This document shows, one piece after another, positions 39,229 through 56,012 of a stretch of DNA of 64,000 nucleotides (position 1 is its first letter; each line of letters starts with the position of its first letter). A model generated the notes under the pieces. It was not told the origin of the DNA and made no database searches. It saw only the letters and a list, made by a program, of their open reading frames with translations. This DNA comes from Verrucomicrobiales bacterium. GTDB taxonomy: Bacteria; Verrucomicrobiota; Verrucomicrobiia; Limisphaerales; CAIMTB01. The position numbers and the translations under genes were made by a program. Where the stretch lies: the NCBI GenBank assembly GCA_016795425.1, contig JAEUHG010000165.1:21024-85023 (forward strand). The letters run 5' to 3'.

Positions 39229-40083
39229 TCAGGCGTCCAGATCTTCGCGGACGATCTTCAGATCCACGGTCATCTGCTGGGACGCGCGCCCTTTGAAATT
39301 GCCGCGGATCGGCGCGGCATCGGCGTAGTCGCGACCCACCGCCATTTTGACATGGTGCTGATCCACGGGGCAGTTGTTGGTGGGATCCAGGCCCAGCCAT
39401 CCATGTCCGGGCAGGTACACCTCGACCCAAGCGTGCGAGGCGAGTTCGCCGCGAAGATTCTCACCGGGCTTCACATAAAGGTACCCGCTGACATATCGGG
39501 CCGGGATGCCGGAAATGCGGCACAACCCGATCATGATATGGGCAAAGTCCTGGCAGACCCCGCGTTTGAGGGCCAGCACCTCAAGCAGCCGGGTGTGGAC
39601 CGTGGTGGCGGCAGGATCATAAGTGAACTCGCGGTAGACATGGTGCAGCATCGCAAGCGCCAAGCCCCAGGCATCGTCGTGCCCCATTCCGACATCCTGC
39701 GCCATGCGCCAGACCTCGACGTCCTGGGCCACATACTCGCTGCGCTGCAGAAAATCGTAACACCGCTCCAACCGCAGGCATTCACCCAGCCGCGACCTGG
39801 GAAAAGACACGCCCTCCAGGCGTCGCGGGTCGCGCAGCGTGGTGACCACGGAGCGCGCCTCGATCTCGAGGGATTCGTGCGGTTCCCCGATATAGAAGTG
39901 GTCCACCAGGTTCAAGTGGAAGTCGTGATAGCGCCGCAGGGAAGCCACCGGGCTGGTCTTCAATTCGTAATGGTGGCATTCCTGGCCGTCGTCCGAAACG
40001 GGCTGAAGCCGCACTTCGTTGAAGTTCTCCGAGACCGGCGATGAGTACCGGTAGCGAGTGCGATGGACGATGTTCAGTCGCAT
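39229..40083 (-). CDS. Transglutaminase-family protein (Bact_transglu_N + transglutaminase core)
   Basis: The start is MRLNIVHRTRYRYSSPV (ATG 40083); the ORF opens at 40167. The Cys-His-Asp set is GVCQDFAH, ASHAWVEVY and LGLDPTN. Confidence 0.9.
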   Translation of the reverse strand: MRLNIVHRTRYRYSSPVSENFNEVRLQPVSDDGQECHHYELKTSPVASLRRYHDFHLNLVDHFYIGEPHESLEIEARSVVTTLRDPRRLEGVSFPRSRLGECLRLERCYDFLQRSEYVAQDVEVWRMAQDVGMGHDDAWGLALAMLHHVYREFTYDPAATTVHTRLLEVLALKRGVCQDFAHIMIGLCRISGIPARYVSGYLYVKPGENLRGELASHAWVEVYLPGHGWLGLDPTNNCPVDQHHVKMAVGRDYADAAPIRGNFKGRASQQMTVDLKIVREDLDA

Positions 40084-40181
40084 GATCCCCCCCAGGGGCA
40101 GCAAAGGTTGCCGCACTCGGCCGCTGGACCGCATCCGAAATCCGCACGAAAATTCCCGTCCACCCACCGCTCGTCAGTCGG

Positions 40182-41054
40182 TCATAGCGGGGTGACCTCG
40201 ACGGCGACATTCACGCGGTGTTTGCCGCCACCGACAATGATGCCGCTCACCGGGCTCACTTCGGAGAAATCCCGACCGTAGGCCACCGTGATATGCTCGA
40301 ACTCGGGCATCAGGTTGTTGGTCGGATCGAAGTCCACCCAGCCGTAGCCCGGACAATAGACCGAGAGCCAGGCGTGCGAGGCGTCCGCGCCCACGAGCTG
40401 TTTGGCTTCCTCGGAACGATAGGTGCGCAAATAGCCGCTGACATACCGCGCCGCGAGACCGATGGACCGCAGGCAGCCCAGGGCCAGGTGGGTAAAATCC
40501 TGGCAAACACCGCGGCGCCGCTCGAGCACTTCCTCCAGCGGCGTCGCCACCGTCGTGGCTTCGGCGTCGAAGGTGAACTCCTCGTGGATCCGCCGGTTCA
40601 AATCGAGCATCGCCTCCAATAACGGACGGCCCGCGGTAAAACTTGTGGCGGCATAGGCGGCGAGTTCCGGGGAGGGGCGCACGTGCGGCGATTCGAACAC
40701 GAATTGGTGCGCCTCGAGCGTTTCGGAACTCACCGGTTCCCGGAGCATCGTCACCACCTCGCTCCAGGGAGGACTCTGTTCCGGCGAGGGCGGCAAACCC
40801 GGCATGAGCCGCACGACGCTCTCCGCTTCGATTTCCAGACTCGCATGGAGTTCCTGGACACTGAAGAAGCAGACCCGATTGCCGAAGTAATCGGACCGCA
40901 TCTTGCGGACCGCCGGCTTGGGTGAGATCCGCAGATCCCAGCCTTCGCGATGCTGCACCGGCGTCGTCCTGGGCTTCACCCGGGCCGCATGGTGCGACAC
41001 CGTCACCGGCTCGCTGTACTCGTAGATCGTCCGATGGCGGATCCGGTAGTTCAT
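40182..41054 (-). CDS. Transglutaminase-family protein (Bact_transglu_N + transglutaminase core)
   Basis: It starts MNYRIRHRTIYEYSEPV. The catalytic set is GVCQDFTH, ASHAWLSVY and VDFDPTN. The start overlaps the upstream gene's stop by 4 nt. Confidence 0.9.
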   Translation of the reverse strand: MNYRIRHRTIYEYSEPVTVSHHAARVKPRTTPVQHREGWDLRISPKPAVRKMRSDYFGNRVCFFSVQELHASLEIEAESVVRLMPGLPPSPEQSPPWSEVVTMLREPVSSETLEAHQFVFESPHVRPSPELAAYAATSFTAGRPLLEAMLDLNRRIHEEFTFDAEATTVATPLEEVLERRRGVCQDFTHLALGCLRSIGLAARYVSGYLRTYRSEEAKQLVGADASHAWLSVYCPGYGWVDFDPTNNLMPEFEHITVAYGRDFSEVSPVSGIIVGGGKHRVNVAVEVTPL

Positions 41055-43636
41055 GCAACCCCTTCGCCGGTGCGCGACGTGGTCGAGTGCGCAAAATAAC
41101 TTACGGCAATCGCGTCGGACAGGCGCGGCAAGTCCCGCAAGGTCTGCTCAATCGCGACCCCGATCTCGCTTTCCCGCCACCGACCGCCCATGCCCGCCAA
41201 GGGCCGCGGATCCGCGAGCCGAACCCGCGTCGAGCATTCGATCAGGCATCGGTAGGCCGGACTGGGCAGCGCGGACTGCTTCTCGCGCGGCAGGCGCTCG
41301 AAGTGCTTCACCAACTGGTTCAACTGGAACAGCAGGGACCTCGGATTGGTGTCGTCCAGAACCACCAGGTCGTAGACCGCCGCGATGTTCGGCAGAAGGT
41401 TGTAGCGCGAGCGATAGGTGATGGTGCTGTCAGCGACATCCAGAACCGACTCGAGAACACTCGGATTATCCGCTTCCGCGGAACGCAGCGCGCAATCGAG
41501 AAAGGTGGAGAGGTAGATGCAACGTTCGATGCGCACCCCCATGTCCAGGAAGCGCCAGCCTTGGGCGCGGGTCATGTTCTCACGCGCCATGCCATGGAAC
41601 GACGCCAACCCGAGGATGGTCTGGTTCAACACCCCGACGGCATCCCCGGCGAGGATGACCTTTCCGGTCGCGGGAATCGTCACGCGATCGTCGATCGTGC
41701 TCAGGACCCGCCAGAGATCGTTGGAGGTCCGATCCCGCACGAGCGTCGCCAGATGCTGCAATTGCCCCGCGAGATGCCGCAGGCTGCCCCGGCGATCCGG
41801 GCTGAAGATCGCCGCCAACAACTCGGCTTCGAGTGCTTCGGGATTCGCGCGCAGGTCGGGGCGTTCAGCCAATCCCTCCAACTGCCCTTGCGCCGACAGC
41901 GCGCTCAGCAACGGATCGAGCAACGGCGCCGAACTGCCGGTGCTTTCCGGACTGAAACGAACCAGCGTCGCCCGCAACAGCCGCGCGGTGGCGTCCGCTC
42001 GTTCGCAGTAGCGTCCCAGCCAATAGTAATTGTCGGCGAGGCGGCTCGGCAGATTGTTGCCGACGCGGCGCAGTTCGACGGACTGGGCGCCGGCCTGGAG
42101 CAGGCTGACCTCCTCGATGGGGCCATCCGCCAGAACCCACGTGTCCTTGCTGGACCCACCCAACTGCATGGAGATGAATCGCGCTCCTGGCTCGGGCGTC
42201 ACCCGCGTCAATCCGCCCGGCATGACGCGATACGAGTCGCCGCTGGCCACCAGGTAGCAACGCACCGCGACGGGATGGGGCACCACCCGGCCGCCATCCC
42301 AACTGGGCGCCGTCGCCAGTTCGACACGCTCCTGGGCGATGAAGGCATGGGGCTGAAAGGCGACCAAACGCCGCACTTGGTCGCGTTGGGCCTCGGTGGG
42401 TTTGCCGGCGAATTCAGGAAGGCGCGGTCCGGAGCGCAAAGCCGGCCGAACCACGAGGCGATCCAGGTGATCCAGCACGTGCGCCAGTTCTCCCGGCTGG
42501 CCGCACCACCAGGTGGCCACGGACGGCAGCTTCAACTCCTCGCCCAGCAGGTCACGGCAAAGTCCGGGCAGGAACGCCATCAGCGCCGGGCTCTGCACCA
42601 GGCCGGTGCCCAATGAGTTCGCCACCGCCACGTTACCCGCCCGCAACGCTTCGACCAGGCCGGGAACGCCCAGCGACGAATCATTGCGCAATTCCAGCGG
42701 ATCGCACCAATCGTCGTCCACACGACGCAGAATCACATCGACTGGCTCCAGGCCGCTCAGGGTTTTCAGCCAGACCCGGTCATCGCGCACCGTGAGATCC
42801 TGGCCCTCGACCAAGGAATAGCCGAGGTACCGCGCCAGCCACGCCTGTTCGAAGTAGGTCTCATTGTAAGGACCGGGCGTCAGCAGCACCACCCGCGGAT
42901 CCTCCACACGCCGGGGTGACAAGGCCGCGAGGGTGGATCGCAATTCCCGAAAATACGGCGCCAATCGCTGGACCTGGCAGGCGCGAAAGGCCTCGGGCAG
43001 AACGCGCGAGGTCACCAGGCGGTTGGCCAGAGCATAGCCGGAGCCCGTGGGAATCTGGGTGCGATCCGAAATCACCCACCACCGGCCATCGGGGGAGCGC
43101 CCCAGGTCGGCGGCGTAGAAATGCAACAGCCGCCCGTCCGACGGCGTGATGCCGTGGCAAGGCCGGAGAAAATCCGGTTGGGCGAAGACCAGGGCCGGCG
43201 GCAACCCGGAATTCCGGATCAGCAACTGGTCGCCGTAACAATCCGCCAGAATGCGATTCAACAACTGGGCCCGCTGGATGAGGCCGGCTTCGAGCCGTCG
43301 CCATTCCTCGGCGGCGATGACAAACGGCAACGGATCCAGCCCCCACGGACGCTCCATGCCCCGGGGATCGCCGTAGACATTATACGTGATGCCCTGTTCG
43401 TGGATGATCCGTTGCGCGGTTTCCGCCCGGCGGCGCATCTCCGAGGTATCCAACTCGTTCAATTCACGGAACAACGAGCGATACGCGGCGCGTTCTTCGC
43501 CATCCGCGGTCATGGCCTCGTCAAAGACCCCTCGAAGCGGCCGGTAGCCAGCCAACCAGGTCTCCGGCGGGGCTTCGACCGTCGTCGCGGGATCGACCTT
43601 CGGGGCGGCCGGACTTTTTGCGTTGGCTTGGGTCAT
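41051..43636 (-). CDS. Fusion protein: circularly permuted type-2 ATP-grasp domain + alpha-E domain
   Basis: The N-terminal half is collinear with the stand-alone ATP-grasp at 51309..52784 (QGITYNVYGD...PFVIAAEEWRRLEAGLIQRAQLLNRIL). The C-terminal half starts with PSRLADNYYWLGRYCERADATARLL, the alpha-E signature (compare SRVANSLYWMSRYIERAENTARIV at 50295..51296). Confidence 0.9.
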   Translation of the reverse strand: MTQANAKSPAAPKVDPATTVEAPPETWLAGYRPLRGVFDEAMTADGEERAAYRSLFRELNELDTSEMRRRAETAQRIIHEQGITYNVYGDPRGMERPWGLDPLPFVIAAEEWRRLEAGLIQRAQLLNRILADCYGDQLLIRNSGLPPALVFAQPDFLRPCHGITPSDGRLLHFYAADLGRSPDGRWWVISDRTQIPTGSGYALANRLVTSRVLPEAFRACQVQRLAPYFRELRSTLAALSPRRVEDPRVVLLTPGPYNETYFEQAWLARYLGYSLVEGQDLTVRDDRVWLKTLSGLEPVDVILRRVDDDWCDPLELRNDSSLGVPGLVEALRAGNVAVANSLGTGLVQSPALMAFLPGLCRDLLGEELKLPSVATWWCGQPGELAHVLDHLDRLVVRPALRSGPRLPEFAGKPTEAQRDQVRRLVAFQPHAFIAQERVELATAPSWDGGRVVPHPVAVRCYLVASGDSYRVMPGGLTRVTPEPGARFISMQLGGSSKDTWVLADGPIEEVSLLQAGAQSVELRRVGNNLPSRLADNYYWLGRYCERADATARLLRATLVRFSPESTGSSAPLLDPLLSALSAQGQLEGLAERPDLRANPEALEAELLAAIFSPDRRGSLRHLAGQLQHLATLVRDRTSNDLWRVLSTIDDRVTIPATGKVILAGDAVGVLNQTILGLASFHGMARENMTRAQGWRFLDMGVRIERCIYLSTFLDCALRSAEADNPSVLESVLDVADSTITYRSRYNLLPNIAAVYDLVVLDDTNPRSLLFQLNQLVKHFERLPREKQSALPSPAYRCLIECSTRVRLADPRPLAGMGGRWRESEIGVAIEQTLRDLPRLSDAIAVSYFAHSTTSRTGEGVA

Positions 43637-43680
43637 CAGCGCAGACGAAGTCTAACGCCAGCCGAGGCCCGGTTGGAAGA

Positions 43681-43710: not shown

Positions 43711-43954
43711 CCGATCGGACAGGGACCCGGGAAAACCAATCTCGGTGGATTAGGTTTTTCGTCGGCCTGCCGATACTCAAGATGACGAGGCGAGCGCTTC
43801 GATCCCCGATGAGAACCCGGTTCGACAGACCCAAACCCTACGCCGGTTGGCGTTTTCTGGGACACCCTTGTGGCGATTCCCTCGTGGGCCTACTGCCGAC
43901 CACTCAGAACCCGGATCGAACGCTCGCCATCGATCTTCTACGTCGTTGGCCATC

Positions 43955-45346
43955 ATGGGCAGTCGTTTCATAACACCCTTCTCCCACCTTTCCCGGAATC
44001 TCTGTTCATTGCTGGCCGGCTCGCTGACCGCAACCGCGGATCTTCCCAGTCCACCGCCACAAGCGCCGCTGACGATTCATCCTGGCGGCGGCAATCCTGT
44101 CGCCGAGGCCGAGGTCAATCCACACCTCCTGCCGGACTCCATCACCTTTCATTCGTCGCTGAACCAGCACGGCATCGACTACTCGGTAGGTTACGCCGTT
44201 GAGGTATTGGGAAATACCTCGGGCGGATTCGATCGCGGGGCGGTAGCCGAGGGGCTGCTCAAACTGCAACTGGATCTCGATACGGAAGGCCTGGAGCTCT
44301 GGACCGGCGGTCAGTTCCATGCCTCGGCCCTCTATTCGCACGGCGACAGTCTGAGCCAGCGCTTTACCGGCGATCTGTTCACGTTCAGCAACATCGATGC
44401 GCCCGACGCCCTGCGCCTCTTCGAATTCTGGTACGAGCATGCGGTGGTTCCCGATCGACTGTCGCTGCGGATCGGACAGTTGGCCGCCGATGAGGAATTC
44501 GCCGGCACTGAGCACGGATGCCTGTTCATCAATGGCACCTGCGGTTGGCCAGGATTGCTGGCACTCAACGTCCCCTCTCCGGCCTACCCGGTCGGAACCT
44601 TGGGCGCCCGGCTCCAACTCTCCCTCGACCAGGGCTGGATTCTTCGCGGCGCGGTCTACAACGGGGATCCCTATCCGATCGGCGACGATGGCCGTCCGGA
44701 GAACGGGCACGGAACCCACTTCAGCTGGCGCGACACTCTTTCCCTCGTCGAGGTGCAGAAGCTCTGGAATGACGGACCCGAGGCGACCGGCCTTCCGGGC
44801 GGGGCCAAAGTCGGTGGCTGGTACCATTCCGGCCTCTTCGAACACCCGCGCTATGATTCCCAAGGCTTGTCCTTGGCAGACCCGGGTTCCAGCGGTGATC
44901 CCCAATGGAATCGTGGACACTGGGGGGCCTATGTCGCCGTCGACCAGCAAGTGTGGCGCGAGAGTGCGGAAAGCCCGGATCAGGGCCTGGGACTCTTTTC
45001 GCGCCTTGGAATCGCTCCCGCCGATCGCAGCGTTCTCGAGTACTACCTGGAAGGTGGCCTCACCTACACCGGACTGATTCCCGGGCGAGACGCCGACGGC
45101 CTTGGGGTCGCGGTGGTTTATGGCCGCATGAGCCGCCACGCTCGCGCGCTCGCCGCCGATGCCAACGCCTTCGCCGGAACCGACGATCCATTGCCCGACT
45201 TCGAAATGGTGGTGGAGTCAACCTACGCGATCCAAATCAGTCCGGCGCTGACGGTTCAGCCGGTTCTCTCCTACTTGATCCACCCGGGTGGATTTCCCGG
45301 GAATGACGCGTTGGTCCTTGGTCTCCGAGCGACCATGGACTTCTGA
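43955..45346 (+). CDS. OprB-family carbohydrate-selective porin
   Basis: The likely start is MGSRFITPFSHL (ATG 43955). OprB-like blocks are LKLQLDLDTEGL..W.GG.FHASALYSHG, LRLFEFWYE and LSLRIGQLAADEEF. The C-terminal beta-signature ends in F (ATMDF). Confidence 0.8.
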   Translation: MGSRFITPFSHLSRNLCSLLAGSLTATADLPSPPPQAPLTIHPGGGNPVAEAEVNPHLLPDSITFHSSLNQHGIDYSVGYAVEVLGNTSGGFDRGAVAEGLLKLQLDLDTEGLELWTGGQFHASALYSHGDSLSQRFTGDLFTFSNIDAPDALRLFEFWYEHAVVPDRLSLRIGQLAADEEFAGTEHGCLFINGTCGWPGLLALNVPSPAYPVGTLGARLQLSLDQGWILRGAVYNGDPYPIGDDGRPENGHGTHFSWRDTLSLVEVQKLWNDGPEATGLPGGAKVGGWYHSGLFEHPRYDSQGLSLADPGSSGDPQWNRGHWGAYVAVDQQVWRESAESPDQGLGLFSRLGIAPADRSVLEYYLEGGLTYTGLIPGRDADGLGVAVVYGRMSRHARALAADANAFAGTDDPLPDFEMVVESTYAIQISPALTVQPVLSYLIHPGGFPGNDALVLGLRATMDF

Positions 45347-45360
45347 CCGGCCGCTTCCGG

Positions 45361-48300
45361 TCAGGCTCGGCGCAGGTCGAGAGTGAACGGATAGTCCGGA
45401 TCGTCCTCCAGTTTGGCCGGCTTCAGCGTTCCGATCGAATGCCCGTGGCGGAAGAACCGCGCCAAGCGGCGACTCTCGGCCTCGTAGGCATTGACTGGAA
45501 ACGTGGTATAGTTGCGTCCGCCGGGATGCATGACGTGATAAGTGCATCCGCCGATGCTGCGTCCGTTCCATTGATCCACCACATCGAACACCAACGGGGT
45601 GTGGACGCCGATGGTGGGATGGAGGCAGTTCGGCGGTTGCCAAGCCCGATACCGGACTCCCGCGACCGCCTCACCGTTGGTGCCGGTAGGATGCAACGGC
45701 AGCAGCACTCCGTTCACCGCCACCGCATGCCGCGAATCGACCATGCCGCGCACCTTGACCTGGATACGCTCGAGGGATGAGTCGACATATCGCACGGTGC
45801 CTCCTGCCGCCCCTTCCTCGCCCAGCACATGCCACGGCTCGAGAGCCTGGCGCAACTCCAGGTGCACATTCCTCACATCCAGATCACCGAATTGAGGAAA
45901 CCGGAACTCGAGGTGTGGGGCGAACCACTCCTCCTTGAACGGATACCCATTCGCGTTCAGGTCCGCGACCACGTCCTTAATATCGTCCCAAACGAAGTGC
46001 GGCAGCATCCACCGGTCGTGAATGTCGGTTCCCCACCGCACGAGGCGGTTCTCATAGGGACGCTTCCAGAACCGTGAAATCAAGGTCCGCAACAGAAGCT
46101 GTTGGGCCAGGCTCATCCGTGCATGAGGCGGCATCTCAAACGCCCGCAACTCCAACAGACCCAGCCGTCCACTCGAACCGTCGGGTGAATACAGCTTGTC
46201 GATGCAAAACTCCGCGCGGTGCGTGTTGCCACTCGAATCCACCAGAAGATTCCGGAACAAGCGGTCCACCAGCCAAGGCTGGGCGAACCCGTACTCGGGC
46301 ACCTGTCGAAAGGCGATCTCCAACTCGCGCAACGAATCATTGCGCGCCTCGTCAACCCGCGGGTTCTGGCTGGTGGGGCCGATGAAAAGACTGCTGAACA
46401 GGAAAGATAGCGACGGATGATTCTGCCAGTAGGCCAGCAGGCTGCGCAGGAGATCCGGTCGTTTGAGGAGCGGGGACTCCTGTGGTGTCGCTCCTCCCAG
46501 CACGATGTGATTGCCGCCGCCCGTGCCGGTATGCCGGCCATCGAGCATGAATTTCTCCGTCCCCAGACGCGCCAACCGTGCCTCCTCGTAGAGCACCTCC
46601 GTGTTGCGCACCATCTCGGACCAGGATCGCGCCGGGTGGATGTTCACTTCCAGCACTCCCGGATCCGGCGTCACTTTCAACACGCTCAAACGCGGATCGT
46701 GCGGTGGGGGGTATCCCTCCAGGACGATCGGACGATCAAGTTCCGCCGCGGTCGTCTCCACCGCCGCCAGACAGTCCAGGTAGTCCTCCAAGGTCGCCAC
46801 GGGGGGCATGAAGACATAGAGACGCCCGTTTCGGGGCTCCACGCACAGGGCTGTCCGGACAATCCAGGGCGCGGACTCGTGCCGGACCGGGAACCGCAGC
46901 GCTTCTCCCGGGAGGATGGGACGTGCCGGGCCCGCGCCGGGTGATCCCTGCGGTCGCCAGCCGATGTGTGCCTCCGGGCTCGCCGGGATCGCTGCCTGAC
47001 CTCGGCCCACGAGGAACGCCTGGCGTGGCGGGAGGGCGGGACGCGGTTCCAATGGGTCCTGCGGCGTTAAGTGAGGATAATCCGCCTGCCGCACCCAGGG
47101 GACGGAGTCCAGCGGCAACCGGAATCCGATGGGTGAATCCCCGGGAAGCAGATACAGCCGTTCGGGCCGGAGGAACCACGGTCCGCTGGTCCAGGAATCC
47201 CATTGCCGCTGCAACGGAAGGATGTGGCCGATGGTCTTCTCCAATCCTTGTTCGAAGATCCGCGCTAGGCGCTTGCGGTCCTCCTCGTTCTTCAACTTGG
47301 AGTCGAACGGATCCACGTTGGTCGGGAGACGGCGTTCCTTCCAGAGATAGTACCAAGTGTCCTCAAACGCGGGCATCACCCACTTGGCGCCACAGCCGAG
47401 GTGATCCGCCAGCCGATGAATGAAGCGCTCGGAGTCGCGTTCATTGAAGCCATAATCCCGCCCGACATCGGCAAAGAGTTCCGGCCGTTCCCACGTGGGC
47501 TCGCCGTCGCCTCGCCAGTAACACGCGTAGGCCCAGCGCGGCAGCGACTCCCCGGGGTACCATTTACCCTGGCCGTAATGAAGGAACGCTCCCTCGGAAA
47601 AACGCCCCTTCAACCGTCGGATCAGGTCGTCCGCCAGTTTGGGCTTCGTGGGCCCGAGGGCGGCGGTATTCCACTCCTCGCCGTCCATGTCGTCGATGGA
47701 CACGAAAGTGGGTTCACCCCCCATGGTCAGCCGGCAGTCATAGCGGCGCAGGTCATCGTCGACCTGGTGACCGAGCCGGTCGATCTCCTGCCATTGCTCC
47801 TCGGTGTAGGGAAGCGTGACGCGGGGCGACTCGTGAATCCGCTTCACCGACATCTCGAACTTGAACTCGCACTCGCATTCGTCGACGAGTCCGGTGATCG
47901 GTGCGGCGCTCTGGGGATCCGGCGTCGCCGCCAAGGGAATATGCCCCTCCCCCGCCAGCAACCCCGAGGTGGGATCCAATCCGATCCACCCGGCGCCGGG
48001 CAGGTAGACCTCGCACCAGGCATGCAAGTCCGTGAAATCCTGTTCGGGCCCGCTGGGGCCATCGAGCGACTTCACGTCGGCGGTCAATTGGATGAGGTAT
48101 CCACTGACAAATCGAGCGGCCAATCCGTAACTGCGGAGCAACTGACAAAGCAACCACGCCGAGTCGCGACAGGAACCGCTGCCCTTCTCCAGGGTCTCCT
48201 CAGGAGACTGAACGCCTGGCTCGAGGCGGATGAGATAGCGAATGTCACGCCAGAGCCTCTGATTGAGGCCGACCAGAAAATCGATCGTCCGGGGCCGGTC

Positions 48301-48849
48301 GTCCACCTTCTCTTCGACAGGCAATTGGCCGCTGGCCGGCAGTTGCCCGCCGCCATGGTGGGTGTCGATGTGACTCGCCGCCTGAATGTGCGGCACACCA
48401 TGCCCGGCAAGGATGGGCTGAAAATGGCCGCCGATCAGTTCCTTCCCGACCGCTGCCGCGTAGGCCTCGAACTTCGGAGTCCCCGGCAACGTGAGAAGAT
48501 ACGGCGCGATTTCGTGCGCCAGTTCGGGCGCGTACCGGAAGGGGAACCGTTCGGCGTCAGGTTCGAGGAAGAAATCGAAGGGATTGAAGACCGACATCTC
48601 GGCCACCACGTCGACTTCGACGAGAAACTCGCGGGTGGGTTCGGGGAAAGCGAGGCGCGCCAGGTAGTTCGATTGCGGATCCTGCTGCCAATTGATGAAG
48701 TGTTTTTCGGGCAGGATGCGCAGCGAATAACTCAGAATGCGGGTGCGCGAATGCGGCGCCGGTCGCAGTCGGACGATCTGCGGCCCGAGTTGAACCAGTC
48801 GGTCGTACTGGTAGTGGGTGCGATGATGAAGAGCGACGTGGATGGCCAT
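45361..48849 (-). CDS. Large transglutaminase-family protein (Bact_transglu_N + transglutaminase core + DUF2126-type C-terminal region)
   Basis: The start is MAIHVALHHRTHYQYDRLVQLGPQIVRLRPAPH (ATG 48849). The catalytic set is GSCRDSAW, DLHAWCEVY and IGLDPTSG. About 800 aa of conserved C-terminal region follow. Confidence 0.9.
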   Translation of the reverse strand: MAIHVALHHRTHYQYDRLVQLGPQIVRLRPAPHSRTRILSYSLRILPEKHFINWQQDPQSNYLARLAFPEPTREFLVEVDVVAEMSVFNPFDFFLEPDAERFPFRYAPELAHEIAPYLLTLPGTPKFEAYAAAVGKELIGGHFQPILAGHGVPHIQAASHIDTHHGGGQLPASGQLPVEEKVDDRPRTIDFLVGLNQRLWRDIRYLIRLEPGVQSPEETLEKGSGSCRDSAWLLCQLLRSYGLAARFVSGYLIQLTADVKSLDGPSGPEQDFTDLHAWCEVYLPGAGWIGLDPTSGLLAGEGHIPLAATPDPQSAAPITGLVDECECEFKFEMSVKRIHESPRVTLPYTEEQWQEIDRLGHQVDDDLRRYDCRLTMGGEPTFVSIDDMDGEEWNTAALGPTKPKLADDLIRRLKGRFSEGAFLHYGQGKWYPGESLPRWAYACYWRGDGEPTWERPELFADVGRDYGFNERDSERFIHRLADHLGCGAKWVMPAFEDTWYYLWKERRLPTNVDPFDSKLKNEEDRKRLARIFEQGLEKTIGHILPLQRQWDSWTSGPWFLRPERLYLLPGDSPIGFRLPLDSVPWVRQADYPHLTPQDPLEPRPALPPRQAFLVGRGQAAIPASPEAHIGWRPQGSPGAGPARPILPGEALRFPVRHESAPWIVRTALCVEPRNGRLYVFMPPVATLEDYLDCLAAVETTAAELDRPIVLEGYPPPHDPRLSVLKVTPDPGVLEVNIHPARSWSEMVRNTEVLYEEARLARLGTEKFMLDGRHTGTGGGNHIVLGGATPQESPLLKRPDLLRSLLAYWQNHPSLSFLFSSLFIGPTSQNPRVDEARNDSLRELEIAFRQVPEYGFAQPWLVDRLFRNLLVDSSGNTHRAEFCIDKLYSPDGSSGRLGLLELRAFEMPPHARMSLAQQLLLRTLISRFWKRPYENRLVRWGTDIHDRWMLPHFVWDDIKDVVADLNANGYPFKEEWFAPHLEFRFPQFGDLDVRNVHLELRQALEPWHVLGEEGAAGGTVRYVDSSLERIQVKVRGMVDSRHAVAVNGVLLPLHPTGTNGEAVAGVRYRAWQPPNCLHPTIGVHTPLVFDVVDQWNGRSIGGCTYHVMHPGGRNYTTFPVNAYEAESRRLARFFRHGHSIGTLKPAKLEDDPDYPFTLDLRRA

Positions 48850-48859
48850 GGGAAAATGC

Positions 48860-50254
48860 TTACGAACCGGGCTCTGGCAGGTAGCGGATGCGCTTGTTGA
48901 TGTCGGTGTTGATCGAGTGGTACGGCTGCGTGAGGTTGCCCGCAGCGAATAAGGTCTGCCGCAAATGCTCCATGTCATCCTCGCCGATCGCATCGGTGAA
49001 GATCGACGTCAGATAGGCGATCCCCATGCGGGAGGGTTTCATGAGACGCGCATCGTACATTTCCGGATGCATGAAGCGGGCATGGATTTTTCCCCATCGG
49101 TCACGGAACCGGTTGGCATCGAATCCTTCCACGTGGAAACCCGCCGAGGTGCTGTACTGCAGAATCGACACCGCGTTGTTTCGTCCTTCGAGCAACAATT
49201 CCACCGCCCGCGCCCCCAATTGGGCCGCATAAAAGCGGTCGAAAAGAATCGGGCGCCCACCCCGTTGGGTGTGTCCGACTTTACGAGTGAAGATGGCTTC
49301 CTTGGCCGACTCGCCCCGCCGGTAAAGCTGGAAGTACCGGTCGCCGATCATCTGGATCAGCTTGGATCGAAGCGCTTCCGCCGCCCCGGTGAGCTGCACG
49401 TTGCCCGCGGGATCGGTGGTCCGGCTTTCGGCGCCGAGATCCCGGCCCTGCTCATCCACGATGCCTTCACCGCAAACAATCACCACATTCTTCTGCAGAT
49501 CGTAGATATGCTTCACCCGCTCGACCAATCGCTCGAGATCCAACGAGCACTCGGGAACGAGAATGATGTCCGGGCGACCATAGGCGGAGCCGAGGGCGAT
49601 GTAGCCGGAGTGACGACCCATCACTTCGATGATGGCAATGCGGCGATGGCTCTCGGCGGTGGTACGGATGCGTTCGACGCCTGACGCGGAGACATACACC
49701 GCGGTGGCGTAGCCTGGCGTCACATAATTCACCATCTGGTCCAGCTGATACTCGGCCCTCGACTCGACCCTCTTGTACCGGAAGCCGCCCTTTACGGTCG
49801 AATCCGCGACGCGCACCCATTCATCAGGTTCACTCGGATAATTCAACCCGAGATCATTATCGATCGTCTTGGGGGCCAGAACGGTGGGCAGGCGCTCGGC
49901 GAGCGGCTGGAGCCCGTTCAGGGTGCCATCACCCCCGACGCAGATCAGCCCTTCGATCCCCAGGCGATGCAGCCGGTCGGCGATCTGGTTGAGGTCGCCC
50001 GTCTTGTCGGGATCCACGTAATCCCGGGAAGACCCGATCAAGGTGCCGCCCTTGGTGGGGTCGATTTCGGGAATCTCCTGGTAGAGCGGATTGAGGTGCA
50101 CATGAGGCACCCGCGGATTGAACAGGCTGTTGAAGCCCTTGATGAGGCCGATGATCTCGACCTTCAACTGATTGGCGCGCACGACGGCGCCTTGGATGGT
50201 CGCGTTTAAGGCAGGGGTATCTCCCCCGGCCGTCAGGATGCCGATGCGTTTCAT
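48860..50254 (-). CDS. 6-phosphofructokinase (long form; phosphoryl donor not assignable from sequence)
   Basis: Supporting motifs are MKRIGILTAGGDTPALNA, CVGGDGTL, PKTIDNDL, EVMGRHSGYIAL and GHTQRGG. The protein is 464 aa with an insertion after TIDND. Confidence 0.9.
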   Translation of the reverse strand: MKRIGILTAGGDTPALNATIQGAVVRANQLKVEIIGLIKGFNSLFNPRVPHVHLNPLYQEIPEIDPTKGGTLIGSSRDYVDPDKTGDLNQIADRLHRLGIEGLICVGGDGTLNGLQPLAERLPTVLAPKTIDNDLGLNYPSEPDEWVRVADSTVKGGFRYKRVESRAEYQLDQMVNYVTPGYATAVYVSASGVERIRTTAESHRRIAIIEVMGRHSGYIALGSAYGRPDIILVPECSLDLERLVERVKHIYDLQKNVVIVCGEGIVDEQGRDLGAESRTTDPAGNVQLTGAAEALRSKLIQMIGDRYFQLYRRGESAKEAIFTRKVGHTQRGGRPILFDRFYAAQLGARAVELLLEGRNNAVSILQYSTSAGFHVEGFDANRFRDRWGKIHARFMHPEMYDARLMKPSRMGIAYLTSIFTDAIGEDDMEHLRQTLFAAGNLTQPYHSINTDINKRIRYLPEPGS

Positions 50255-50294
50255 CTCGACGTCAGGTCCGACACCACCCGCGAGTGGGGGTGGG

Positions 50295-51296
50295 TTATTG
50301 CTGTTGGCGTTCGACGCCTGGATCCAGATCCAGGTACGGCAGGAAGATATAGGCCTGGAACAACGCGTCCCCGATGGCGTTCAACTTCACTTGGACCTGG
50401 TCCAGGTAGTCATGGAGCCCGGGCGCGAAGATCTCCTCGACGGTGCTGAACTGCAGCTCGGCCAGGAGGCGGCCCGACAATTTTTCAGCCTCGTTCGTGA
50501 AACGGTGCGACGGCGTTCCCGCGATGCTGCGCAGCCCGACATCGAGCTGAGCCACGCAGGCTCGCACAGATCGGGGAAAGTCATTGGACAGGACCAGCAA
50601 TTCGGCGATGCGGGAGGGTTGGATGTCGGCACCGTAGGACTGCCGGTAGGCGTCGAGGGCGCTGCAGGATCGCAGGACGGCGACCCATTCGAGGGCATCG
50701 GTCTCGTTGATCGGACCGGGCATGCCCTTGGGCGGCAGCGTCTGGTAACGGACGTCGAGGATGCGGGTGGTCTTATCGCCGCGTTCGAGAAACCGGCCGA
50801 CCTCCATGAAGTGGCAGCCTTCGTTTTCGAGCAGGGTTCCGCTCACCAATCCCTGGAGATAAAGGGATGAACGCTTGACCTCATTGCAGAACTCGTCCGG
50901 CGCCGAGGCCCAGGTCTGACGGGCCTGCGGCGATCGCATGAACAGGTACAGGCGGTTGATCTCCTCCCACATCTCCTGGGTGATCTGGTCCCGCACCATC
51001 CGGGCGTTCTCACGAGCCTGTGTGACCGCGCTGGCGATCGAGTTCGGGTTGTCGGAACGGAACACCAGAAAATCCGTGACCGTCTGCCCATTCGCCGCCT
51101 GGTAGAGTTGAAAGAAAAGCTTCTCGTCGCCGGTGCTTTGGACAATGGGAACCCAGTGCTCGGCCAGGCGGCGGTCATCCAGGTTTCGAAAGTCGAGCAG
51201 CAGCTGAAGATTGACATCGACGATGCGCGCGGTGTTTTCCGCCCGCTCGATGTAGCGGCTCATCCAGTACAGAGAATTCGCGACTCGGCTCAGCAT
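50295..51296 (-). CDS. Alpha-E domain protein
   Basis: MLSRVANSLYWMSRYIERAENTARIVDVNL is the canonical alpha-E N-terminus. It starts 12 nt downstream of the ATP-grasp gene. Confidence 0.9.
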   Translation of the reverse strand: MLSRVANSLYWMSRYIERAENTARIVDVNLQLLLDFRNLDDRRLAEHWVPIVQSTGDEKLFFQLYQAANGQTVTDFLVFRSDNPNSIASAVTQARENARMVRDQITQEMWEEINRLYLFMRSPQARQTWASAPDEFCNEVKRSSLYLQGLVSGTLLENEGCHFMEVGRFLERGDKTTRILDVRYQTLPPKGMPGPINETDALEWVAVLRSCSALDAYRQSYGADIQPSRIAELLVLSNDFPRSVRACVAQLDVGLRSIAGTPSHRFTNEAEKLSGRLLAELQFSTVEEIFAPGLHDYLDQVQVKLNAIGDALFQAYIFLPYLDLDPGVERQQQ

Positions 51297-51308
51297 GGAA
51301 GTTCCAAC

Positions 51309-52784
51309 TTACTCTTCGCCATACAGCACCCAGGTGTCTTTGCTGCCGCCGCCCTGGGAGGAGTTCACCACCAGCGACCCCTTCCGCAGCGCCACCCGCG
51401 TCAATCCACCCGGCAGCACGAAGATCTTTTCGCCATTCAGAATGAAGGGCCTCAGATCGATGTGCCGCCCCTCGAACGACTCCCCGCAAAAGGTCGGGTG
51501 CCGGGAGAGGCTAATCATCGGCTGGGCGATGTAATTCCGCGGATCGGCGATAATCCGTTCCCGAAACGCTTCAATCTCCACCTTGCTCGCCTTGGGACCC
51601 ATCAGCATCCCGTAACCGCCGGACTCGTTCGCCGCCTTCACCACCAACTCGCCGAGGTGATCCAGGATGTACTTCCGATCCTCATCCTCGCTCGCCAAAT
51701 AGGTGGGTACGTTGTCCAGAATCGGGTCTTCCCCCAGGTAAAACCGGATCATCCGGGGGACGAAGTAGTACATCACCTTGTCGTCAGCGATGCCGGTCCC
51801 CACAGAATTGGCCAGACTGACATTGCCGGCGCGATAGGCATGCACCAATCCGGGCACACCCAGCATGGAATCCTTCCGAAACACCGTGGGGTCCAGAAAA
51901 TCGTCATCGATGCGGCGGTAAATCACGTGGACCGGCTGCAGGCCGATCGTGGTCCGCATGTAGACACGCTCATTGCGCACCACCAAGTCCCGTCCCTCGA
52001 CGATTTCGATGCCCATCTGGCGAGCCAGGTAGGTGTGCTCAAAATAGGCGCTGTTGTACGGCCCCGGCGAAAGCAGAACCACGGTGGGTTCGGCCACTCC
52101 CGGCGGTGCCAGGTACAGCAGCGTCTTCAAAAGCACATCCGGGTAATTGGCCACAGGCCGGACACCCGTCGATTCGAACAGGCCCGCGAAGGTCCGCCGC
52201 ATGGCTCGGCGGTTTTCCAGGACGTACGAAACCCCTGACGGACAACGCCCATTATCCTCCAAGACCAGGTACTTTCCGTCCCGATCCCGGATCAGGTCCG
52301 TCCCACAAATGTGCATGTAGATGTCCTTGGGGACCTGGAAATTGACGAACTCCCGCCGGAAATGCCTGGCTGAGAGGACGTAAAATGGGGGGATCACTCC
52401 TTCCTTGAGGATCCGCTGCTCATGGTAGATGTCGTGGAGGAAGTGGTTGAGGGCGGTGATTCGCTGCACCAGACCAGCCTCCACCCTTTGCCATTCGCTG
52501 GCCGGGATGATGCGTGGGATCAGGTCGAACGGGAAAATGCGTTCGGCGCCCTGCTGGTCTCCGTAGACATTGAAGGTGATCCCCTGGCGCAGAAAGGCGA
52601 GGTCGACGGCCTGCCGTTTCTGGTCGAACTCGTCCCGTTTCAGGGAATTAAATCGCTCCCAGAAACGTCGGTAGTGAGGCCTGACCTCACCGCCCGCCGT
52701 CATCATCTCGTCGTAAAACTCGCCCGCCTCGTATCGATCCAAAAGCACGCCGGGCCAGAGAATGCTCGGGCCGGGAATCGACAC
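51309..52784 (-). CDS. Circularly permuted type-2 ATP-grasp protein
   Basis: YDEM...VRPHY..F...L....F..K...[17 protein letters not shown]...[36 protein letters not shown] matches the family. It is a paralogue of the N-terminal half of 41051..43636. Confidence 0.9.
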
Positions 52785-53030
52785 AAGTCCGGTATTTCAA
52801 CCGCGTCTGAATTTCGTTCATGGTCCTGATGAGCGAACCCGTGATTCCCACTGGCCGAACGCCTTGGCATGGCTCACGCTTGCAATGACCCAGCCCGTCC
52901 GGCCTCACTTTTGCCGGTTGGGAAAAGAATGCGTCGAAACAAAACGAAACCGAGGCGCGTCTTGTCCAATGACTCAACCTGCCACCGACTTGGGAGCCAA
53001 TCCGGCAGCCAATCGGGGTCGGGAGACGGA

Positions 53031-53792
53031 ATGACCATGAAATCCACGGAACGGGTACGGCACCATGCAGGCAAGGGGTTCACCTTGATCGAACTTCTCG
53101 TTGTTATCGCCATCATCGCCATTCTGGCTTCCTTGCTTCTGCCGGCCCTGGCAGGCGCCAAACGCAAGGCCAAGGCGATTCAATGCCTTAACAACGAACG
53201 GCAATTGAATCTCGCGGGTGGTCTCTATGCCGATGATCACGACGACTATTATCCTCCGCGACGGGAACCTCCTGGCGCCTGGCCGTGGAGCCTGCTGGGC
53301 TACTACAAGGATCCCACCGTGGTCACGTGTCCTTCGGACAAATTCATGATCTTTTCGGGATTCATGGATCCCACCAATCGCCTCCAAATCCGCCGAAGCT
53401 TCCTCATCAACGGATTCAATGACTACTTCCGGACGGCCCTTCCCGCCGAGGATTATCAACTCCATCGGGAGTGGAAATGGCCAGTAGGGATGCGCCGCGG
53501 CAGTATTCCCATGGCTTCGGAAACCATCATCTTCGGTGAAAAGAAGGCCGGGTCACCGCACATTCACATGGATTTCGATCAAGGCTCCCAAGGCAATGAT
53601 ATCGAACAGGTTTCCCAAAACCGGCATACCGCCAACGAATCCGGACGATCGGGCGGGTCGAACTTCGCCTTCGCCGACGGCAGCGTTCGGTTCCTCAAAT
53701 TCGGTATGTCCATGACCCCGCAGAACCTTTGGGCAGTGACCGAGGAATGGCGCAACGCAGCCGTCAAACCCGAGGATATTCCGAACAAATAA
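53031..53792 (+). CDS. Prepilin-type N-terminal cleavage/methylation domain protein (H-X9-DG-like)
   Basis: The likely start is [40 protein letters not shown]. The C-terminal motif is [14 protein letters not shown]. Confidence 0.9.
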
Positions 53793-53813
53793 CCGTTCAG
53801 CCCCCTTGACCGC

Positions 53814-56012
53814 GTGAACACCCACCTGCCCGCCGGCCCTACCCCCGCGGGCCACCCCTCCTTGACCCCTCGACGTGCGGTGGCCCGGCTCCTGGTCGGC
53901 TCCTCCCTGATTCTGCTGGCGCACCTTCCGTGGGTCGCCACAGCACAGGTCGTCATCAATGAAATCATGTACCATCCCCCGGACGACCGGGATGAGATGC
54001 AGTGGGTCGAGGTGCACAACGCCGGCTCGACACCCGTGAGTATTGGCGGTTGGTCCTTTACCAAGGGAGTGAAGTTCACCTTTGCCAAGGATCTGACCCT
54101 TCCCGCGGGCGGTTTTAGCGTCATTTGCCGCGACCGCGGCGGATTCCGCATCCAATACGGAACCAACATCCCGGTCGCCGGCGAATTCACGGGAAAGCTA
54201 AGTCACGGCGGCGAGACTTTGGAACTCTCGGATGCCAAGGGGCAGAAGGTCGACTCGGTCAAATTCGACGACAAAGAGCCCTGGCCGGTTTCTCCCGACG
54301 GCATGTCGGCGTCGCTCGAACGCATCGTGGCGTCCGCACCCAGCGATCTTCCGCAGAACTGGGCGCCTTCCGTGTTGCCACTGTCTCCTGCTCCGGCGGG
54401 TACCCCAGGCCAGCGCAACGCTGCCGCTGCCACCAACCTTCCGCCGATCCTTTCCAACGTGCAGTTCGCGCCCCCCCTTCCAGGCAAAGCAACGCCGGTT
54501 CAGGTCGATATCGCCGATCCCGACGGACTTCGTTCTGCCACGCTTCTTTTCCAGGCGATCGACACCGCGACTGCCGGCCAGCGCACGGCGGCACCCAGTA
54601 CCGCGCCGGCGTGGAAGGAGATCGCGCTGCAGCGGAAGGCGGGCGATGCCAAAAAAGGGACGTTCAGTGGTGACATTCCTGCCCTCCCGGAACGGCAGAT
54701 CCTTCGTTTCCGACTGGCCGCCGTCGATGAGACCGGGGCGACCCGTCAACTCCCGCATCCTTCCGACGCTCGGCCGACGTTCTCGGCTTACGTTGGAGGC
54801 AATACCAACAAGGCCCTGATTCCGATGGTGTCCTTGTTCGAATTCGGCCCCAAAGAAATGCCGGGTCGTTCCCTTCGCAATTCTTTCGGGGGACCACGAC
54901 CCAACCGGCGTGGCCCGCAAGTTCTCGAGCCCGTGCGCGGGGCCGCTTGTCTCGTTTATATGCCGCCCGGGGGCGGGCCCGTCCAGACTCTGGACCACAT
55001 CCGCATCACCCCGCGCCAAGGCGGCTGGAAGCTTCGACTCCAAAAGGACCAACCCCTGCAGGAGATGACGACGGTGAACGTCATGTTCGAAAACCAACCT
55101 CGGTTTGTGCTGGCCGAACACCTGGCTTACGAACTCTACCGCAAATCCGGCACCACCGCGCCGCTGAGCGGGCATTGGCGCATATTTCACAACGGACGAC
55201 CGACCGGGTATCACCTCTATGTCGAGCAACCCAACAACAGCTTCTTCCGGAGGGTCGGCCGCGACCCCGAAGGGGATGTTTACAAACTGCTTTGGTACGG
55301 CCACGACATCGTTTCGCAGCACGAGAAGAAGAACAACCCCGAGACCGGCCACGCGGAACTTGTTCAATTGATCGAGGCCCTCCAGCGATCCAATGGGGAT
55401 AAGCAGTGGCAACTCATCCAGCAGCGGTTTCACCTCGACAGCTTCATCAACTACTACGCCGTCAACATGTGCATTCAGAACTGGGACGGCTTCTTCAACA
55501 ATTACTTCCTCTACCGAGCCCCAGGGCCGACCGGAAAATGGGAGATCATCCCTTGGGACGAAGATAAGACGTGGGGCGACTACGACGGCTGCTCCCCCCG
55601 TTACGATTGGTACACCATGCCGTTAACCATGGGCATGACTGGCGATCGCCCGAAGTCGGGAATCCTGGGCGGCTTCGAAATGGGTGGCATCCACGGAGGT
55701 CCCTCCTGGTGGCGTCACCCGGGCTGGTTCTCCGGACCGCTCCTGGCGAACCCGTCGTTTCGAGCGAAGTTCCGGACCCGGCTCCGAGAGATCTGCAACA
55801 CCATCTTCACCCCTGACCAATGGGAACCGATTCTGGCCCGGATGGAACAGGAACTCGAAGCCGAGGTTCGCTACCGGTCCGGCTTATTTCATGGCGATGC
55901 CTCCGCCTCCAGCCAAACCGTCGCGGAATTCAAGCTCCACATGGACTCCTTCCGACGCCAGGTCACGCATCGCCGCCAATTCCTGCTCAAGGAACTCGAC
56001 AAGGAAGAGTAA
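53814..56012 (+). CDS. Secreted lamin-tail-domain (LTD) + CotH kinase-family protein
   Basis: After a signal peptide, the LTD is VVINEIMYHPPDD...WVEVHNAG..VSIGGWSF. The C-terminal CotH block is NYYAVNMCIQNWDGFFNNYFLYR...WEIIPWDEDKTWG. Confidence 0.85.
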   Translation: MNTHLPAGPTPAGHPSLTPRRAVARLLVGSSLILLAHLPWVATAQVVINEIMYHPPDDRDEMQWVEVHNAGSTPVSIGGWSFTKGVKFTFAKDLTLPAGGFSVICRDRGGFRIQYGTNIPVAGEFTGKLSHGGETLELSDAKGQKVDSVKFDDKEPWPVSPDGMSASLERIVASAPSDLPQNWAPSVLPLSPAPAGTPGQRNAAAATNLPPILSNVQFAPPLPGKATPVQVDIADPDGLRSATLLFQAIDTATAGQRTAAPSTAPAWKEIALQRKAGDAKKGTFSGDIPALPERQILRFRLAAVDETGATRQLPHPSDARPTFSAYVGGNTNKALIPMVSLFEFGPKEMPGRSLRNSFGGPRPNRRGPQVLEPVRGAACLVYMPPGGGPVQTLDHIRITPRQGGWKLRLQKDQPLQEMTTVNVMFENQPRFVLAEHLAYELYRKSGTTAPLSGHWRIFHNGRPTGYHLYVEQPNNSFFRRVGRDPEGDVYKLLWYGHDIVSQHEKKNNPETGHAELVQLIEALQRSNGDKQWQLIQQRFHLDSFINYYAVNMCIQNWDGFFNNYFLYRAPGPTGKWEIIPWDEDKTWGDYDGCSPRYDWYTMPLTMGMTGDRPKSGILGGFEMGGIHGGPSWWRHPGWFSGPLLANPSFRAKFRTRLREICNTIFTPDQWEPILARMEQELEAEVRYRSGLFHGDASASSQTVAEFKLHMDSFRRQVTHRRQFLLKELDKEE

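Follow-up and report, generated by a model that had tools for sequence, protein, structure and literature searches.

Why does a gene for 6-phosphofructokinase (PFK) lie inside a cluster of amide-ligase and transglutaminase-like genes, and does its position carry any functional meaning? A preliminary description of this DNA had reported, at 45361-52784, an operon encoding a cpATP-grasp protein, an alpha-E protein, a PFK and a 1163-aa transglutaminase-fold protein, separated by 12, 40 and 10 nt. Reading the sequence of the window (the whole stretch of 64,000 nucleotides analysed) directly, we found these four genes co-directional on the minus strand with exactly those spacers, and Pfam searches returned the same four identities; the length of the large protein is corrected to 1162 aa. 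As an account of the operon the description covered only part of the cluster, which reaches down to 39229, and it missed both the second half of the cluster and a PPi-dependent PEPCK that partners PFK in relatives. The cluster as a whole (39229-52784) reads G-E-[P]-D, OprB, then F-T-T, with the letters assigned as follows:

51309..52784, minus strand: cpATP-grasp ligase (G), 491 aa, GTG start; Pfam CP_ATPgrasp_2, 555 bits, 1e-166; leads module 1
50295..51296, minus strand: alpha-E protein (E), 333 aa; Pfam Alpha-E, 333 bits, 2.7e-99; 12 nt past G
50255..50294, minus strand: alpha-E/PFK spacer, 40 nt; weak 6-bp hairpin, no U-run
48860..50254, minus strand: long-type 6-phosphofructokinase (P), 464 aa; Pfam PFK, 204 bits
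45361..48849, minus strand: transglutaminase/DUF2126 protein of the Rv2566 type (D), 1162 aa; ATG 10 nt past the PFK stop
43847..45346, plus strand: OprB-family carbohydrate-selective porin; Pfam OprB, 257 bits; convergent with D
41051..43636, minus strand: fused cpATP-grasp and alpha-E protein (F), Rv2567 type; Pfam CP_ATPgrasp_2, 518 bits, and Alpha-E, 223 bits
40182..41054, minus strand: small transglutaminase-like protein (T); Pfam Bact_transglu_N and Transglut_core; ATG overlaps the F stop
39229..40167, minus strand: second small transglutaminase-like protein (T); Pfam Bact_transglu_N and Transglut_core; open reading frame coordinates, the true start may lie downstream

We examined the proteins of the first module individually. 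G aligns with PDB 3n6x at 604 bits in a PDB sequence search, a structural-genomics entry titled 'putative glutathionylspermidine synthase'; its GTG start is uncertain because homologue alignments begin only at about residue 13. A PDB search returned no solved structural relative for alpha-E. D joins a transglutaminase-like domain at its N-terminus to a carboxylate-amine-ligase-like domain (PF09899) at its C-terminus, with Pfam matches to Bact_transglu_N, Transglut_core and DUF2126 (1355 bits, DUF2126 over residues 323-1160). The Cys-His-Asp set, which the preliminary description had called intact, corresponds to Cys227, His276 and Asp292 in the motifs GSCRDS (residue 225), HAWCEVY (276) and GLDPT (290), and is conserved in Verrucomicrobial and proteobacterial homologues. 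A 1210-aa reading frame for D in the mechanical list was rejected; it starts too early and overlaps the 3' end of the PFK gene.

Upon comparing the cluster with known systems, we observe features of two of them. The Anbu-type operon of Proteobacteria and cyanobacteria comprises cpATP-grasp, alpha-E, transglutaminase-like and Anbu genes, as cited from Iyer et al. 2009 in PMC6376114 and PMC5666114; Anbu is a frequent fourth gene of the family, not a universal one. In the window G is followed directly by E across a 12-nt gap (PF14403/PF04174 and PF04168), the same families in the same order, and transglutaminase-like proteins with a Cys-His-Asp set are clustered with them. Unlike that operon, the window has its small transglutaminases at the far end past module 2 and a PFK after alpha-E, and Anbu, a proteasome beta-subunit homologue, is absent from the genes at 39229-52784, all of which are accounted for. 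The second comparison is with the Rv2566/Rv2567-type module of Mycobacterium tuberculosis and Proteobacteria, made up of DUF2126, a fused cpATP-grasp/alpha-E protein and a transglutaminase. The window shares its domain architecture and its order of D, then F, then a small T, and its D is 55-61% identical to DUF2126 proteins of Ralstonia, Caballeronia, Shinella and Azospirillum. In contrast to the four proteobacterial loci of this type, the window carries an opposite-strand OprB gene between D and F, and a PFK before D. The module runs without interruption in L001 and in L165-L168, the order D-F-T-T recurs in L001, and OprB is missing at the corresponding position in L001 and all other related loci examined, where D directly adjoins F.

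Judged by gene content and order, the region first described makes up the first half of a supercluster of two amide-ligase/transglutaminase modules, which OprB in the window divides into G-E-P-D and F-T-T. A 306-aa other-frame open reading frame at 40174-41094 had no Pfam match and was discarded, the real gene there being 40182..41054. No cluster protein matched a defence system in PADLOC, and neither tRNAs nor Rfam families were found in the window.

Next, we investigated the PFK itself. Relative to bacterial ATP-dependent PfkA of B. stearothermophilus and E. coli (3u39, 6pfk, 1pfk) it is ~32-35% identical and shares the fold together with GGDG, TIDND, MGR, E222, H249 and R252. Beyond these it has two inserts, one of them about 43 aa long near residues 136-178, and at the C-terminus a conserved extension of about 100 aa (approximately residues 365-464) that has no PDB match; its far C-terminal tail is variable. 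Its Pfam score (203.9 bits against a gathering cut-off of 30.9) is far above threshold, whereas it falls under every NCBIfam cut-off for ATP-PfkA, PFK_mixed and PPi-PFK (216.7 against 253 for PRK03202, 208.4 against 430.55 for TIGR02483), and it can therefore be assigned to a distinct subfamily. As far as sampled, this long subfamily is confined to sequences from Verrucomicrobia and Planctomycetes, and a generic PFK motif scan of genome contigs yielded at least five members among the matches listed. An AlphaFold2 model built on a 10-sequence alignment (A1) had a mean pLDDT of 36.8 and was unusable.

The catalytic features are complete in alignment. GGDGT, PKTIDND, EVMGR, GEG and GHTQRGGRP align to the B. 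stearothermophilus enzyme, with F6P-binding and catalytic equivalents in GGDG, TIDND with Asp127, Arg162, Glu222, His249 and Arg252, and these motifs are invariant in 72 orthologues, Planctomycetes included. By these residues the window PFK is catalytically intact. The alignment places Gln and Val at the Arg21/Arg25 positions, so that the PfkA-type allosteric effector site is absent. At position 104 of PFKs a glycine goes with ATP as phosphoryl donor and an aspartate with PPi. The window PFK has GGDGT, with the ATP-like glycine, but in PKTIDND the residue at 124 is Lys, which PPi-type and mixed PFKs share, and its frequent partner in relatives is a PPi enzyme. Given the Gly that GGDG places at the residue-104 equivalent, it is probably ATP-dependent.

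To place the arrangement in a wider context, we surveyed related loci from two sides. Among 80 metagenome loci selected solely through the C-terminal extension of PFK, which are not phylogenetically independent, cluster genes lay beside PFK in 42. The orders in these were E-P-D (25), E-P-K-D (6), P-G-E(-T) (5), divergent F-D-E-G and P-K (3) and F-T-T-P (1), with two distant cases, K being the PPi-dependent PEPCK. In Verrucomicrobia, PFK, PPi-PEPCK or both occur within the supercluster or immediately next to it, in at least five gene orders and alongside two divergent G-E module lineages; PFK follows alpha-E proteins of two identity classes (roughly 60-82% and roughly 41-45%), with overlaps or gaps of 4-6 nt at three different positions. 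PFK was unlinked in 11 loci flanked on each side by 3 kb or more of sequence, throughout one entire PFK clade and in the Planctomycete orthologues. The linked and unlinked orthologues are ~80-88% identical to the window PFK, and no residue tells them apart.

The second survey comprised nine loci chosen only by DUF2126, three of which had PFK embedded or adjacent and five of which had none. Among the latter is the closest relative, L173; it has its upstream flank in common with the window and is a clean G-E-D cluster with no PFK remnant in its E-D spacer. PFK was also absent from all four proteobacterial loci, which, together with the published four-gene Anbu operon, bears out the initial view that PFK stands outside the usual trio. 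On these neighbourhoods the link between PFK and cluster is facultative. Unrelated genes also occur at module junctions, namely OprB in the window and Peptidase_Mx in L166 (Caballeronia), and the plasmid matches H10, H16 and H17 proved to be lone transglutaminase genes. Other-frame minus-strand reading frames in the L096 and L100 inserts and at 6759-7985 of L166 gave no Pfam match; the correct frames were found afterwards.

PPi-PEPCK emerged from the first survey as a recurrent partner. A 1134-aa gene after PFK in relatives, two copies of which had no match by Pfam or NCBIfam, scores about 1300 bits against PDB 6k31 (Actinomyces, labelled AiPEPCK) and 8e1u (labelled PPi-dependent PEPCK). It adjoins PFK in 17/80 PFK-chosen loci, is the commonest partner of PFK outside the cluster, and in L178 occupies the slot between E and D alone. 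The window contains no PPi-PEPCK gene.

We then examined the junctions. The preliminary description had named two observations that would speak against a link, namely a promoter and terminator belonging to PFK, or an insertion confined to this genome. A minus-strand consensus scan of the PFK gene ends turned up neither a sigma-70-like promoter nor a terminator-like site, a negative that is weak evidence because promoters of Verrucomicrobia are poorly modelled. The hairpin predicted in the 40-nt spacer does not stand out from shuffled controls (z = 0.48). In most relatives a 4-nt ATGA overlap of alpha-E stop and PFK start takes the place of that spacer, seen in 18/27 related full-length loci with alpha-E directly before PFK. 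Within the reach of these scans, PFK fills the alpha-E/DUF2126 junction with no detectable signals of its own, and the 42/80 and 3/9 loci above place the insertion well beyond a single genome.

What is known of the family gives a frame for interpretation. The system was predicted by comparative genomics to carry out peptide tagging or peptide synthesis. ATP hydrolysis by a Yersinia enzyme is the only activity reported, and stable complexes among the Yersinia operon proteins were not seen. In a 2026 Mtb preprint, Rv2411c and Rv2567 were assayed for GABA-trehalose synthesis alone, and the result was negative; a literature search under the name DUF2126 returned no papers. This agrees with the earlier statement that no substrate or role of the trio has been shown experimentally. 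In P. putida, nitrate in place of ammonium induces the cpATP-grasp/Anbu genes 16-22-fold, and a sigma-54 site precedes a CP_ATPgrasp_1 gene of Bradyrhizobium; in Proteobacteria the ligase/transglutaminase system would belong to the nitrogen-limitation response. Upstream of the window operon we found no sigma-54 site, and across the whole window such sites were fewer than expected by chance.

The reading we prefer, held with about equal measures of belief and doubt, is that selection favours expressing central-carbon flux enzymes together with the ligase system. Selection for co-expression would have kept PFK and PEPCK linked to the cluster, coupling two flux-controlling steps, F6P -> FBP and PEP <-> oxaloacetate, to an ATP-consuming system that makes and cleaves amide bonds. 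The coupling could plausibly serve to provide Asp/Glu skeletons made from oxaloacetate, or to keep carbon and nitrogen in balance. PFK would perform ordinary PFK chemistry, rather than that of a dedicated tailoring kinase, and would be dispensable for the ligase system itself. Against this reading count the facultative nature of the linkage, the missing sigma-54 site upstream of the window operon, the phylogenetic non-independence of the metagenome loci, and the presence of OprB and Peptidase_Mx at junctions, which fits neutral insertion. PVC bacteria, moreover, often carry multiple PFK paralogues, so that the long PFK may not be the main glycolytic enzyme. Neutral hitchhiking, in which a chance PFK neighbour, with or without PEPCK, in an early Verrucomicrobium was reshuffled at permissive inter-module junctions with no functional meaning, is a serious though rather unlikely account. 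Those same junction genes speak for it, as do the ~80-85% identical PFK orthologues found on their own in many loci as well as in Planctomycetes, the clean G-E-D of L173 and the proteobacterial loci that lack any PFK. However, the adjacency persists in at least five orders, even though PFK has in places shifted to the opposite end of the cluster and onto the other strand, it recurs at 4-6 nt at three different positions, PFK accompanies two alpha-E lineages about 41-45% identical to each other's class, and PEPCK alone can fill the same slot; so deep a synteny, reaching alpha-E proteins of only 41% identity, would rarely last without selection.

Two further explanations give the linkage a biochemical content. 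PFK and PPi-PEPCK may be protein targets or partners of the system, with the ATP-grasp and GS-like ligases adding a peptide or amino acid and the transglutaminase-like thiol enzymes removing it, or with alpha-E binding PFK, so that carbon flux would be controlled post-translationally; the modified site could be, for example, the subfamily-specific insert or the C-terminal extension of PFK. The predicted peptide tagging, the translational coupling of alpha-E and PFK in most loci, the unique and highly conserved extension and the recruitment of two different flux-control enzymes to one cluster are all consistent with this, yet the extreme tail of PFK varies, unlinked PFKs retain insert and extension, the system occurs without PFK in most other phyla, and the Yersinia operon proteins showed no stable complexes. 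We consider it improbable. The preliminary description had offered co-regulation with sugar-phosphate metabolism or a non-glycolytic use of the kinase, and the former is favoured because linked and unlinked PFKs have no separating residue at their ~80-88% identity to the window's. In the latter, which we judge very improbable, the PFK-fold enzyme would act on another sugar phosphate (e.g. sedoheptulose-7-P) or on an intermediate of an amide-ligase pathway. Its sub-threshold NCBIfam scores and its large insert and extension speak for this, as do the several PFK paralogues of PVC genomes, for which sedoheptulose-7-P activity has been proposed. Against this stand the retention and invariance of all F6P-binding and catalytic motifs, orthologues that are indistinguishable whether linked or not, and a commonest outside partner, PPi-PEPCK, that is itself a central-carbon enzyme. 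The analogy with LysX/LysW/LysZ, where an ATP-grasp ligase is paired with a kinase acting on the ligated product, was rejected because PFK keeps all F6P-site residues and is of the same type as its unlinked orthologues.

Clusters of cpATP-grasp, alpha-E, transglutaminase and DUF2126 genes are spread over many phyla, with Pseudomonas, Ralstonia, rhizobia and Mycobacterium tuberculosis among their carriers, and have been a subject of prediction for more than 15 years. A recurrent link to two flux enzymes of glycolysis and gluconeogenesis that survives rearrangement is a first concrete metabolic handle on the system, indicating where to look, namely hexose-phosphate, PEP and oxaloacetate metabolism and carbon/nitrogen balance, and offering two candidate protein partners. 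Additionally, the survey delimits a long PFK subfamily of PVC bacteria, conserved and as yet uncharacterised, together with the gene pair pfk–PPi-PEPCK. If PFK and PPi-PEPCK were indeed dedicated protein targets or partners in Verrucomicrobia, the class of substrates long sought for a system present in many bacterial phyla would come to light.

We found that the four co-directional genes of the preliminary description, with spacers of 12, 40 and 10 nt (G-E, E-P and P-D) in the window sequence, are borne out by ORF coordinates and by unambiguous Pfam assignments. The cluster, described there as G-E-P-D only, is however larger, continuing with F-T-T beyond an OprB gene, and D, correctly recognised as a giant transglutaminase-fold protein, has 1162 aa and not the 1163 aa claimed.

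Ligase/transglutaminase cluster in the window (G, E, P and D assigned by Pfam)
52784..51309, minus strand: G, circularly permuted ATP-grasp (cpATP-grasp), 491 aa
51296..50295, minus strand: E, alpha-E protein, 333 aa
50254..48860, minus strand: P, PFK-family protein, 464 aa
48849..45361, minus strand: D, Bact_transglu_N/Transglut_core/DUF2126 protein, 1162 aa
43847..45346, plus strand: OprB-family carbohydrate-selective porin, opposite strand, between D and F
43636..41051, minus strand: F, fused cpATP-grasp/alpha-E gene, downstream of OprB
41054..40182, minus strand: T, small transglutaminase-like gene, first copy
40167..39229, minus strand: T, second copy

Because relatives (L001 and many surveyed loci) run G-E-P-D-F-T-T unbroken, the window's gene order reads as a two-module supercluster split by an OprB insertion; no other related locus examined has an OprB porin at the D/F junction. 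The Cys-His-Asp set previously noted in the transglutaminase domain of D is indeed intact (Cys227/His276/Asp292) and is conserved from Verrucomicrobia to Proteobacteria. A 1210-aa ORF for D was rejected as starting too early, since homologues begin at MAIHV, 10 nt past the PFK stop. As to whether PFK has its own promoter and terminator, a coding-strand scan, weak in Verrucomicrobia, found no sigma-70-like promoter or terminator-like site at the ends of the gene, and no significant hairpin was found in the 40-nt alpha-E/PFK spacer. Divergent from the operon, the plus strand (52869-56012) encodes a prepilin-type N_methyl/DUF1559 protein and then a 732-aa Lamin-tail-domain and CotH kinase protein. 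A possible defence gene some 5 kb away (57819-59501, minus strand) encodes a 560-aa protein whose N terminus is a TIR domain, and PADLOC matches it weakly to a SAVED-TIR model (1.3e-06); defence-system models gave zero matches to any cluster protein.

Next, we surveyed PFK neighbourhoods with a metagenome scan seeded solely with the subfamily-specific PFK C-terminal extension, and used the window's proteins as tblastn and blastp queries to annotate the resulting 80 loci. Cluster genes lie on the PFK contig in 42 of the 80, and the embedding is thus not unique to the window genome.

Arrangements in the linked loci (K, PPi-dependent PEPCK)
25 loci: E-P-D, or G-E-P-D-F-T-T fragments
6 loci: E-P-K-D, K being a 1134-aa gene
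3 loci: divergent F-D-E-G and P-K, sharing a 360-400-nt intergenic region
5 loci: P directly upstream of G-E(-T), gaps 4-81 nt in four and ~2 kb in the fifth
1 locus: F-T-T-P
2 loci: cluster genes 5-7 kb from PFK

Among the remaining 38, 11 have 3 kb or more of flank on each side and 13 have partial flanks, all without a cluster gene, and 14 were too short for judging linkage. Where alpha-E directly precedes PFK, its stop and the PFK start overlap as ATGA in 18 of 27 full-length loci, and this alpha-E falls into two classes (~60-82% versus ~41-45% identity to the window's). In a neighbour-joining tree one PFK clade is wholly unlinked, and elsewhere linked and unlinked sequences are intermixed. 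One contig labelled 'uncultured Bifidobacterium sp.' (L005, CAYSDO010000028.1) holds the G-E-P-D-F-T locus typical of Verrucomicrobia; its PFK shares 83% identity with that of the window, and the contig is probably mis-binned.

Upon choosing nine loci solely by DUF2126 similarity (67-74% identity) and length of contig sequence, we observed G-E-P-D in three (L175, L176, L177), PPi-PEPCK by itself between E and D in one (L178), and no PFK in five (L172, a Nibricoccus with D-F-T order; L174, labelled Ca. Acidoferrum; L179; L180; L173). The locus to which the window is most closely related, L173 (identity 84% for G, 80% for E and 74% for D), shares the N_methyl and CotH/LTD genes upstream; its G-E-D is clean, and no PFK remnant was found between E and D (8757-9000). 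PFK is thus frequent in the cluster yet dispensable, since five of nine loci, including the closest relative, are without it. The L173 alpha-E has a poly-Gln-rich tail, followed by a ~120-nt spacer to DUF2126. In L178 the PEPCK at the alpha-E/DUF2126 junction (5574-8998) is called as two genes (432 and 691 aa), by frameshift or a real split, and the second module has cpATP-grasp and alpha-E as separate genes. Additionally, a second G-E lineage (L085, L086, L091, L101, L103, L113, L133, L174, L176-L180), found in Verrucomicrobial loci and the MAG labelled Ca. Acidoferrum, is divergent from the window's (cpATP-grasp ~60%, alpha-E ~41-45% identity) but carries nearly the same DUF2126 (~70%), which suggests module replacement or inter-phylum transfer.

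Ralstonia, Caballeronia, Shinella and Azospirillum keep D-F-T, with D 55-61% identical to the window's, but have no PFK, in agreement with the view that PFK lies outside the usual trio. In Caballeronia the order is G-E, an opposite-strand Peptidase_Mx gene, then D-F-T; in Caballeronia zhejiangensis this zinc-ribbon metallopeptidase gene (L166 6765-7835, minus strand) occupies the alpha-E/DUF2126 junction, where Verrucomicrobia have PFK. Comparative genomics has predicted a role in making peptides or in peptide tagging. The sole activity shown so far is that the Yersinia ATP-grasp hydrolyses ATP; Anbu, the proteasome beta-subunit homologue of the Proteobacterial/cyanobacterial operon, displayed no peptidase activity, the Yersinia operon proteins showed no stable complexes, and GABA-trehalose is not a product of Rv2411c or Rv2567. 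In P. putida, growth on nitrate in place of ammonium induces the genes 16-22-fold, and a sigma-54 site is known at a Bradyrhizobium homologue; none was found upstream of the window operon by a scan that is weak in Verrucomicrobia. Structural-genomics entry 3n6x, matching G, is the only solved relative.

The window PFK scores above the Pfam gathering threshold and below every curated NCBIfam PFK cut-off. Alignment with the B. stearothermophilus enzyme shows that it retains GGDG, TIDND, MGR, the Glu222 equivalent and GHxQRGG, has Gln and Val at the positions of effector-site Arg 21 and 25, and adds an insert of ~43 residues following TIDND, another insert and a ~100-residue C-terminal extension, for which a PDB search found no relatives; an AlphaFold model from a shallow alignment (pLDDT 36.8) was not usable. 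Homologues of the same length and extension share 82-88% identity over many Verrucomicrobial clusters, and those of Planctomycetota 59-68% among the matches listed. Of the 464 positions, 145 do not vary in a set of 72 full-length orthologues, and every catalytic motif is among them. By the established rule that Gly at residue 104 of a PFK points to ATP as phosphoryl donor, the Gly in GGDG suggests ATP. Lys in the residue-124 position, and a partner that is itself a PPi enzyme, make this a tentative assignment.

That partner, K, was missed by Pfam and NCBIfam searches and recognised as PPi-dependent PEPCK by PDB sequence search alone (~1300 bits versus 6k31 and 8e1u); two copies compared share 77% identity. 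It adjoins PFK in 17 of 80 loci (L096, 10378-13782; also L100, L109, L112, L115, L116, L123, L128, L149, L155, L156, L160, L163, L093, L111, L139 and L120), and no PEPCK was found in the window itself. The pair is common on Verrucomicrobial contigs, both within the cluster and at otherwise unlinked PFKs, whose sole widely conserved neighbour is K.

The earlier observation of an embedded PFK, and the inference of either co-regulation with sugar-phosphate metabolism or a non-glycolytic use, hold and are strengthened by the survey, which favours co-regulation of the two. The most economical reading, to which we give an even chance, is that selection in Verrucomicrobia favours expressing PFK and/or PPi-PEPCK together with the supercluster, because the adjacency survives at least five gene orders and two G-E lineages with tight coupling. 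Neutral hitchhiking of PFK beside the cluster, although rather unlikely, stays a serious rival, since the linkage is facultative and unrelated genes, too, are tolerated at the junctions. That PFK is a non-glycolytic, pathway-specific kinase seems highly improbable, as the enzyme is the same in linked and unlinked contexts across the 72 orthologues, which argues against it. PFK and PEPCK as protein targets or partners of the ligase system would be the most interesting outcome, and we regard it as an improbable one.

Under selection for co-expression, supercluster expression would be co-regulated with PFK and/or PPi-PEPCK, both central-carbon enzymes. Overall, the embedding is real and conserved, a variation on a system that is known yet uncharacterised, and it provides a testable metabolic lead on the ligase/transglutaminase system, with any mechanism so far putative.
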